Assembly (NCBI RefSeq): GCF_006345805.1 | Contig: NW_021833897.1 | Coordinates: forward strand, 1-53,359 | Reading direction: 5' to 3' | Origin: Octopus sinensis | Lineage: Eukaryota | Length of the DNA stretch: 53,359 nucleotides | Part shown: one piece after another, positions 7,307-40,886 of the stretch | How positions within the stretch are numbered: position 1 is the stretch's first letter | Layout of the letters: every line of letters starts with the position of its first letter | The notes under the pieces: generated by a model | Seen by the model: the letters and a program-made list of their open reading frames with translations, nothing else | Told to the model about the DNA's origin: nothing | The model's database searches: none | Program-made: the position numbers and the translations under genes

Positions 7307-7974
7307 ATAGATTGTAAAAAGTCGATGAGAAGCTGGATCCTTGTGGTACACCACTGGGGAAATTGTAAGTTTTAGACGTGTTGTATTGGTATACTTGATA
7401 TACAAAGTTTACTTAAGCCAGAGTTTGTTTTATTGGTTCTTAAAGTGGTATTGAGTATTTTTAAATGAGAAAATAGCGATCAATGCAATAAAAGAGTTTG
7501 CTGATATTAATGGCAGTCATTGATATGGTATTTAGCTTTTACTTGTTTCAGTCATTAAAATGTGGCCAAGCAGGAGCATCGCCTTGAAAATTGTTTAGTC
7601 GTATGAATGGATTGGTACTTATTCAATCGGTCTCATTTGCTAAACTGGTGAGTTACGGGGACATAAACACACCAACACCGGTTGCCAAGCGGTAGTGGTG
7701 GGGACAAACACAGACACAAAGACACACAAACACACAAGCACACACACTCACACACACATACATATACTATATATATTATATATATCTACGTATGTACGTA
7801 TGTATATACGTATGTATGTATGTATGTATGTATGTATGTATGTATGTATGTATGTATGTATGTATATACGTATGTATGTATGTATGTATGTACGTATGTA
7901 TATACGTATGTATGTATGTATGTATATACGTATGTATGTATGTATGTATGTATGTATGTATGTATGTATGTATT

Positions 7975-8310
7975 ATATGTAGAAAAATACAAACTGGGAC
8001 AAGAACGTAAAACATTTAGAAGACGATACAAAAAACACGGACGGGACATTCGAAGCCTTCAATCTTCAGTCAAGAACCGGATCATCCTAGTAATTTCGGC
8101 TGATTAATCTTGAGATCGCTCCGATCCGGCCAGCCCCAAGGAAAAACTAAGCTACGAGCATTAGATTTCTTGGAAAAAGGATCGAATGTATACGAAACAG
8201 GGACAGAAAAACGGACGATGCCACACGAATATAAAATACAGAAAACAATAATGGTAAAAACAGGAGAAAAACAGCGTGTGTCTTACGACTAATAGACAGT
8301 ACTTGACAAC
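7975..8310 (-). mobile_element. PLE/retrozyme-like repeat, family E
   Basis: Homologous to 40395-40760; abuts microsatellite; carries permuted HHR motif. Confidence 0.6.
8054..8130 (-). ncRNA. Candidate non-circularly permuted hammerhead ribozyme (family E copy 1)
   Basis: Minus strand: GCCGGAUC-gg-AGCGAU-C-UCAAGA-uuaauc-AGCC-GAAA-UUACU-aggau-GAUCCGGU-UCUUGA-CUGAAGA-uugaa-GGCU. Confidence 0.55.
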
Positions 8311-11954: not shown

Positions 11955-12732
11955 TATGTGGGTACATGACGTCACCAACTGTGTAAACAATATGAAATAC
12001 GAAAACAAACGAGTTAAATACGCAAACAACGAGAGAGAAAAATGGAAAACAGGACAAGTAAACAGAGAACGACCCTTCATCAGTTGTCGTCTGTCTATCG
12101 ACTCCTCGAACGCCACGCATCCATTTCCTAGTAACTTTATCTCAACCTTATTGATGCGACTCTACTCTATACTGTTTACTTCCCCTATCGCTCTCTAATT
12201 CTCTTTTTCTTTCCTTCACCGTTTTCTATCTGTCTGTCTGTCTCTCTCTCTATCCCCCTCTTTCTCTTTTTCTCTCTCTTGCTCACATGTGGCCATCGTC
12301 CATCTTTCTTTTCCTCACGTGACCATCTTTCTTTCCTGCACGACGTTCTAAGGACTGGAGGTTTTCTTTCTCTCTCTTCTATCTTTTCTCTTTTTAAAGA
12401 AAATATTTCTCCCAGCATTCACTATTTTCGTCTCGTTCTGGTCTAACGACCCTCCATGCTTGTTTTCATTCGGTTTCCTTGTATTTCTCCACTGTCCTGT
12501 TTTTGTTCCCAACACTGACCCTCCATAAATCCAAAATTTGTTTTTGGAATTTATGGGAGGAACTGTTTTTGAAGACTCATATTGTCGATGAATGCTCGAA
12601 ATGAGGAGTAGATAGACAGCCGACAACTGATGAAGGGTCGTTCCCCGTTTACGTGTCCTGTTTTCTATTTTCGTTTGCGTATTTAACTTGTTTGTTTTCG
12701 TACTTCAGTTTGTTTACACAGCCGGTGACGTC
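11955..12732 (+). mobile_element. PLE-like remnant, family G, with inverted terminal duplication
   Basis: 11968-12107 is the reverse complement of 12603-12732; the inverted arm ends in (TA)n. Confidence 0.65.
12563..12643 (+). ncRNA. Candidate non-circularly permuted hammerhead ribozyme (family G)
   Basis: CUCAU-A-UUGUCG (12576-12587), GAAUGCUC-GAAA-UGAG (12590-12605), CGACAA-CUGAUGA-A-GGGUcGUUC (12621-12643): stem III 5 bp, stem I 6 bp, stem II 8 bp with one bulge. Confidence 0.65.
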
Positions 12733-12942
12733 TAGCTCCTACACTCATTTTTTTCTCTCCTTTTTTTCCTTTCTTTTTTTTCTCTCCTTGTTTTTTTCTG
12801 TGTATCTTTCTGTCGAAGAGAGTAGGCTCGAAACGTAAAAGACTTTTTCTATTTCTATTCCTGAGTGCTATACTAATACATTTGTTTGTTTGTACTCCAC
12901 CTGCCTTCGTCTTTTGTTTATTTTCGTAAACTTTCCCGTTGT
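12732..12942 (+). mobile_element. Family D2 repeat with minimal HHR motif at 12805-12842
   Basis: Homology to 11669-11862; ends in (TA)n. Confidence 0.7.
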
Positions 12943-40394: not shown

Positions 40395-40760
40395 AATATA
40401 TAAGAATGAATGTTTTTATATATAATGAACGTGAATACACGGAAGGGACGAACACGGAACACAGACAAATCATTCGAAGCCTTCAATCTTCAGTCAGACA
40501 CCGAATCATCATAGCAAATTTCGGCTGTTCAATTCTGATATTGCTCCAACTCGGCCAGCCCCAAGAAAAAAACTAAGCTGTAAGCATTAGATTTCTTGGT
40601 AGAAGACAGGAATGTGAACGACAAGACGGGATGTGAATACAAGAGACGAAAACGAAATTGAAAACAGTAATGAAAAAACAAAATATATATAACGGTGGTT
40701 GTCATACGACTTTAGACCAAATGAGACAAAACAACAACAACATAGCAGCTGGCGTAGAAA
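40395..40760 (-). mobile_element. PLE/retrozyme-like repeat, family E copy 2
   Basis: Homologous to 7975-8310; abuts TA-rich microsatellite. Confidence 0.6.
40478..40555 (-). ncRNA. Candidate non-circularly permuted hammerhead ribozyme (family E copy 2)
   Basis: Minus strand: GCCGAGUU-gg-AGCAAU-A-UCAGA-auugaac-AGCC-GAAA-UUuGCU-augau-GAUUCGGU-g-UCUGA-CUGAAGA-uugaa-GGCU. Confidence 0.55.
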
Positions 40761-40886
40761 TAATTACCGTTTCGGTAAATATATATGTATACATATATAT
40801 ACTCTCAGAGGGCCTGCAATGCCTATAGACCTTGTTCCCTCCTCATGACGATTCTAGAAAAAGGTCCAGAAAACACACACACACCC

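Follow-up and report, generated by a model that had tools for sequence, protein, structure and literature searches.

Hammerhead ribozymes have been described in terms of three blocks, C, G and S, assumed to be uninterruptible, which leaves six possible orders (Eckert 2023; PMC10085705). In type SGC of that scheme a short linker leads from stem I into stem II, and their other sides are joined by a helix; type CSG is known from two sequences. Non-long terminal repeat (non-LTR) retrozymes are non-coding tandem repeats with one hammerhead per monomer that derive from Penelope-like terminal repeats (Cervera and de la Pena 2020; Li et al. 2026 preprint), and Naiads have been reported without canonical hammerheads, with eight cases of an 'HHR_half_core' whose second half lies 35-50 nucleotides (nt) away (Craig 2021; PMC8557442). 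Here we describe a predicted hammerhead with another strand order in a non-coding repeat of Octopus sinensis. The stretch analysed (assembly GCF_006345805.1, contig NW_021833897.1, forward strand, 53,359 nt, hereafter the window) contains two 5'-truncated copies of this repeat on the minus strand. One belongs to subfamily 2 (40398..40777, between (TA)n runs, 96% identical to positions 323-703 of the monomer in locus L013), and the other to subfamily 1 (7963..8302, 95% identical to positions 496-836 of the monomer in L044).

All parts of the motif in the subfamily-2 copy lie on the minus strand and are given here 5' to 3' with the usual hammerhead numbering (A9, G10.1 and so on). It opens with the 5' strand of stem II (P2), GGCUG, at 40556..40560, which starts with G10.1 and stands upstream of the whole motif. 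There follows the 5' strand of P4 (40548..40554), an outer helix connecting stems I and II at their distal ends, with double changes in 6 of its 7 pairs. The 3' strand of stem III (P3) with the AUA triplet (40539..40545) comes next, with the predicted cut at 40539/40538; its placement is based on the sequence, the U16.1-A15.1 pair and a junction excess in a sister subfamily. The 5' strand of stem I (P1), UCAGA, at 40534..40538, is placed by comparison of copies and by covariation. Covariation also places the 3' strands of P2 (CAGCC, ending in C11.1, 40523..40527) and P4 (40501..40507), as it does the upstream P2 strand. Between these two, the GAAA core with the P3 5' strand (40513..40522) was assigned from the sequence. 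The P1 3' strand UCUGA and the CUGAAGA core, whose last base A9 is at 40487, close the motif at 40487..40498, as identified from the comparison of copies. The order is thus P2(5')-P4(5')-P3(3')-NUH-P1(5')-linker-P2(3')-GAAA-P3(5')-P4(3')-P1(3')-CUGANGA, and the link between A9 and G10.1 is open because the stem II 5' strand lies upstream and CUGANGA ends the motif. We consider it likely that this RNA is a self-cleaving hammerhead in which CUGANGA comes last and is not joined to stem II. The fold would restore the core of an ordinary hammerhead, nicked between A9 and G10.1, and the short linker together with P4 would tie stems I and II to each other instead of a loop-loop contact.

The placement of stem II was examined with a scan blind to it, which retained cores with at least four pairs in both stems I and III from the fetched loci and the window (141 cores in 32 clusters). 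The upstream strand was family-specific, pairing on average at 4.44 positions against 3.30 when permuted (0/5000) and reaching at least four pairs in 25 of the 32 clusters. A strand downstream of CUGANGA did no better than permuted ones, either within 2 nt (12/32 clusters; 2284/5000) or within 7 nt (17/32; 1008/5000). The same picture emerged from a MAFFT alignment with 28 representatives, four of the 32 (one inversion junction, one 5'-truncated copy and two near-duplicates) being left out. There the upstream P2 was paired in 83.6% of cells with 42 double-change cells (0/500 shuffles), and a strand one base past A9 was paired in 62.5% without excess covariation. Examples of the upstream pairing in different families are GGCUG/CAGCC, GCACU/GGUGC, GAAGG/CCUUC, GAGCA/UGCUC and GGGUA/UACCC. 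In the window's own family at most one pair can form with a stem II strand within 2 nt of CUGANGA.

The complete four-helix model was evaluated in two groups of families. For group A, 201 core-bearing stretches were considered, 35 loci were picked by eye for intact upstream sequence, and 38 rows were listed. These were reduced to 31 rows, with no filter on pairing, by removing two duplicates, four length variants and one row that belonged to another family. The 35 rows of group B/C were chosen in the same manner. In group A the model was paired in 84.3% of cells, with double changes in 16 of 23 pairs and 17-48% pairing in slid controls; in group B/C it was paired in 77.2% (0/500 for cells paired; slid controls 35-48%), and the upstream P2 in 91.4%. 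Several features of the core are also those of a hammerhead. The U16.1-A15.1 pair, of which U16.1 was absent from the search patterns, is found in 31/31 rows of group A and 34/35 of group B/C, and G10.1-C11.1 is G-C in 22/28, 21/31 and 30/35 rows of the alignment, group A and group B/C. Position N7 is free across the 32 clusters (A in 13, U in 13, G in 3, C in 3), and the triplets are GUC, AUC, AUA, GUA, GUU and AUU, their U and non-G bases being demanded by the filter. Scans of metagenome and viral contigs returned chance matches only and were used as a negative control, in which stems I and III passed in 2 of 155 cores and all three helices in 1. Of 30 cores from the genome, truncated copies and chance matches included, 15 passed for stems I and III and 14 for all three helices. 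No hammerhead family appeared among the 150 listed of 165 Rfam matches for the window, nor among the five for the monomer; these were microsatellite-driven microRNA and small nucleolar RNA matches only, below their cut-offs.

The two window copies differ within the motif. We compared 8053-8137 (copy 1) with 40477-40562 (copy 2), both on the minus strand; the copy-1 motif lies at 8063..8135 with its predicted cut between 8114 and 8113, and a search with copy 2 met no copy in the window other than this one, at 8034-8195, with 79% identity over 164 nt. The initial annotation had proposed that base changes preserve a scrambled hammerhead here, and the letters bear it out. Two double-sided changes turn stem I from UCAAG/CUUGA into UCAGA/UCUGA. 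In the outer helix a G-C pair has become A-U and two further changes are G.U-compatible, and the triplet goes from AUC to AUA while CUGAAGA and GAAA stay the same. Alignment slippage through a change in length is countered by the spacing from cut site to GAAA, 16 nt in both copies. For stem I, paired indels and two substitutions per strand are indistinguishable, and either needs both strands to be altered; in a third subfamily (L135, L141) this stem is UCAGAA/UUCUGA. Among the genome candidates scored, at least 40 others match each window copy at 98-100%, so that the differences are traits of subfamilies and not private mutations. When L032 and L002 are compared as representatives of the subfamilies, the 23 paired positions carry 10 substitutions, which leave one broken pair and make three double changes, against a null mean of 5.5 broken pairs (P for both about 0.001; 200,000 draws). 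The subfamily form is in fact cleaner than either slightly damaged window copy. In stem III of copy 1 there is a private mismatch due to the A at 8091, a position with G in 18 of the 19 other loci of the subfamily (L046 shares the A), and in copy 2 one A that is present in most subfamily copies is missing at 40541-40542; at subfamily level, insertion of an A-U pair extends the stem from 6 to 7 pairs. The proposed selection on RNA structure is thus supported, given that the four helices covary across divergent families, and so is the block order S-G-C, but not the partner implied for stem II. No stem II strands had been named; since the annotated span took in the downstream GGCU (40478-40481) and excluded the upstream GGCUG (40556-40560), the downstream pairing was presumably meant. 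Such a strand is paired in only 46.4% of cells across families on the MAFFT alignment, 252 of 500 shuffles being as high, and would need a 5-nt insert after A9.

The repeat that hosts the motif is a non-coding tandem unit of 700-850 nt targeted to (TA)n, with monomers of about 708 nt in subfamily 2 and about 840 nt in subfamily 1 and the motif about 95 nt from the monomer 3' end. It forms head-to-tail arrays with periods of 708, ~776 and ~835 nt and one ribozyme motif per monomer (subfamily-2 arrays are found in L009-L013), and also occurs as 5'-truncated and inverted copies flanked by (TA)n runs. The monomers of these two subfamilies align well only across some 150 nt around the motif. Counts of the search patterns in the genome against their controls were 12,394 against 336, 545 against 20, and 19,002 against 3,130, an excess of about 28,000 with slight overlap between patterns. 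Neither the monomer nor the sequence upstream of the motif contains a recognisable coding frame. A short interspersed nuclear element derived from a tRNA was ruled out, no tRNA part being found in L013, L044 or L057. The (TA)n insertion, 5' truncation and tandem and inverted copies are traits of Penelope-like and Naiad-type elements; the window's family has no N-terminal GIY-YIG with C-terminal reverse transcriptase (RT) of the Naiad type, and could still be a non-autonomous derivative. The host repeat would then be a non-autonomous Penelope-like element of the non-LTR retrozyme type, presumably moved in trans by a Penelope-like RT and endonuclease. Inversion junctions lie inside or beside the ribozyme motif in several copies (L085, L083, L103, L049). 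From the monomer at L013:1300-1990 there are contigs of 748 and 763 nt in two runs not recorded as RNA that self-close, which tandem DNA and circular RNA fit equally well.

If transcripts are cut, 5'-truncated insertions are expected to begin at the cut. Among reverse-strand junctions of (TA)n to element, 81 lie at the predicted cut, 15 at 8-10 nt upstream and 23 at 20 nt downstream. A hand count of the first 80 loci at the predicted cut gave 67 that start at U1.1 (43 share the T of the repeat, 20 abut and 4 have one added base), 6 that keep C17 despite two bases of microhomology, 6 that start one base later and 1 unclear; the AUA variant could feed the 43 T-sharing junctions. We take this excess as a hint of the predicted cleavage.

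Compared with the described hammerheads, the closest is type SGC (HRIMA-1; PMC10085705), which shares the cyclic order S-G-C, the linker, the joining helix (P4 here) and the CUGANGA/GAAA/NUH core. Unlike in type SGC as published, block C is here split: its stem II 5' strand stands 5' of block S together with the interaction strand, and CUGANGA comes last. Moreover, type SGC comes from metatranscriptome RNAs, whereas the present motif belongs to animal retroelements and is known from sequence alone. Types I, II and III have the order C-G-S, which is not the block order S-G-C found here, and reading the motif as type I, with the hairpin behind CUGAAGA taken for stem II, was rejected, since GAAU comes next and there is no stem I partner downstream. 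In types SGC, CSG and GCS the stem II 5' strand follows CUGANGA within 0-2 nt, something that was found in part in group B/C and not in the window's family. In other words, taking the stem II 5' and interaction strands of type SGC to the 5' end yields the present RNA; the strands form one and the same circle, here open between A9 and G10.1. Type CSG is again this circle, opened after the stem III 5' strand and with A9 and G10.1 joined (PMC10085705). The joint itself tolerates change, since one extra base is known there in viroid and Penelope hammerheads (PMC3705267, PMC4209133), and a full break would presumably be tolerated as well. Non-LTR retrozymes share the non-coding tandem monomers with one ribozyme each but carry type I hammerheads, in place of which there are here two pseudoknots and a split core. 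No description of permuted hammerheads in Penelope-like elements, or of a split block C, was found in the literature searched, which took in few subscription papers and no preprint supplements, and the motif is likely a new hammerhead variant.

A number of observations weigh against a split hammerhead, and some of them fit other readings. CUGANGA and GAAA were forced by the search patterns, and the shuffle controls ignore relatedness, so that clades count many times. The nested fold is no more stable than shuffles (z -0.3 to 1.0), with a tool that cannot form two pseudoknot helices; single-strand folding is uninformative here because the motif is a double pseudoknot. The largest pile-up of junctions is in the AT-rich linker (14/22 loci), so microhomology also shapes the junctions, and the three junction patterns span somewhat different sets of subfamilies. 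An autonomous partner with the motif of the window's family was not found; in a GIY-YIG search none of nine long Neptune-type loci carried the permuted motif. The downstream strand, finally, is not without pairing. In group A it is paired in 65% of cells with a covariation score of 10/500, and in group B/C a strand one base after A9 is paired in 88.5% (0/500), mostly by G.U and with one covarying column. One could thus think of a plain type-SGC hammerhead (Eckert 2023) whose stem II strand follows CUGANGA after five extra bases, or one in group B/C, the upstream strand being accessory. GGCU/AGCC is indeed intact in both window copies, and Penelope hammerheads commonly have one extra base at 9/10.1 (PMC4209133). 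We find this quite unlikely, given that downstream pairing does not exceed permuted or shuffled strands over the 32 clusters and that in four families (L091, L102, L144, L153) the upstream strand forms 5-6 pairs and the downstream strand no more than 2. Besides, P4 comes after the upstream strand, just as in type SGC stem II is followed by the interaction helix, and no inserts above 1-2 nt are known from hammerhead alignments (PMC10085705). It is unlikely as well that the RNA has two states, with upstream P2 as the active fold and the downstream strand taking the P2 3' strand before folding or after the cut, controlling cleavage or blocking re-ligation. Both strands can pair with the same five bases in the window's family and in group B/C, where a local hairpin fails to explain the downstream G-run (259/500), but the downstream partner is missing in several families of the genome and, by eye, in coral and octopus Naiad ends. 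For group B/C, a hairpin directly behind A9 was likewise rejected for want of covariation.

That the fold is kept as a binding site for a Penelope-like protein and no longer cuts seems to us very unlikely, although a Poseidon hammerhead cut with the help of protein that it required, and insertion in vitro did not depend on that cut (PMC11167929), a result that also weighs against the main reading. Of nine Xenopus retrozyme dimers, a single one showed cleavage in vitro (Li et al. 2026 preprint), and transcriptome-like contigs from four runs cross the cut site, contigs of a type that cannot show ends or strand. A mere binding site would leave unexplained the cleavable triplets, free N7 and constant U16.1 across families, and the junctions that accumulate at the predicted cut. 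Shared ancestry and chance pairing in a decaying repeat, an explanation that could draw on the relatedness of the rows and on their choice for intact upstream sequence, is largely refuted and extremely improbable. Double changes occur in four helices and two family groups with low slid controls, a single chance core passed in the negative control, and curated Naiad ends from several phyla show the same order.

These Naiad 3' ends were read by eye, unscripted, from excerpts of the supplement of PMC8557442, in which line breaks and the listing hide some. The split order, with unrelated letters, is present in the 3' ends placed before the headers Naiad_Aacu, Naiad_Anas, Naiad-1_Movir, Naiad_Ovul and Naiad_Omin, whose owners by file order are Amil, Aacu, Anas, Obim and Ovul (coral and octopus). 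Six more excerpts fit it, one with only two stem I pairs and one with a stem II mismatch. The ends of Naiad-1, -2 and -3_Nbra and further nematode excerpts read as type CSG with long perfect stems. Several core-bearing arthropod excerpts could not be fitted, and none were seen for most bivalves in these excerpts. The genome also holds decayed relatives of the Naiad_Obim/Ovul 3' end with the split layout, at least 40 matches at 70-82% apart from the query itself. Naiads share with the octopus repeat the (TA)n targets and the tandem and inverted 5'-truncated copies; unlike them, the window's family is non-coding, and no Naiad reading frame was linked to it.

In the likely use of the split hammerhead, a tandem transcript would be cut once per unit into monomers, and the new 5' end would be a frequent stop for reverse transcription. 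Some 18 pairs (P2, P4 and P3) would hold the monomer 3' end to its 5' end and favour re-ligation to a circle. A Penelope-like RT starting some 150 nt inside the monomer and copying through would then produce head-to-tail arrays of more than one unit, as has been proposed for Penelope hammerheads (PMC4209133). More broadly, Naiads and tens of thousands of non-coding parasites across invertebrates probably carry active pseudoknotted hammerheads that have been overlooked, mostly in a seventh arrangement open at A9/G10.1. In a circular monomer the whole body of the element would be an insert at this joint, while nematode Naiads would be closed (type CSG). If true, this would overturn the assumption of an uninterruptible CUGANGA block, and hence the count of six permutations, and would move non-circularly permuted ribozymes from rare metatranscriptome RNAs to animal genomes with tens of thousands of copies. 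It would also explain the reported lack of Naiad hammerheads and make ribozymes once more a near-general feature of Penelope-like elements. The split-block descriptor can be applied to any genome.

The genome also contains a young Penelope-like element of the Neptune type, with a C-terminal GIY-YIG, many open frames of 781 residues and the same (TA)n target. It is a candidate source of RT for the repeat. Near its 3' end lies a different, hammerhead-like motif in canonical type I order (L275:4663-4720; also L244, L256, L258 and L263) with the core UUGAUAA, in which U3 and A8 replace the C3-G8 pair. In L248 and L258 a family-B motif is found at the Neptune-type tail, likely as a separate insertion. 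In L258 (minus strand, 2700-2870) the family-B copy starts inside the last bases of the tail with no (TA)n between, which could stem from a template switch or from insertion at this point. Short frames coding for low-complexity sequence together with a Penelope-like GIY-YIG region, and for no visible RT, adjoin the repeat at L002:378-1067, L057:300-878 and L054 (minus strand, 2-592), and are possibly endonuclease-only elements.

Within the window, a third repeat family has the same layout with other letters at 12557..12633 on the plus strand, with five pairs in P3, six in P1, one mismatch in P2 and a predicted cut after 12581. This is the only core of the window that passes with at least four pairs in stems I and III, against none in 60 shuffles. 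Around it, at 11960-12880, the forward copy of this family (core 12627) is preceded on its 5' side by an inverted, truncated partner (core 12083, minus strand), an arrangement typical of Penelope-like elements.
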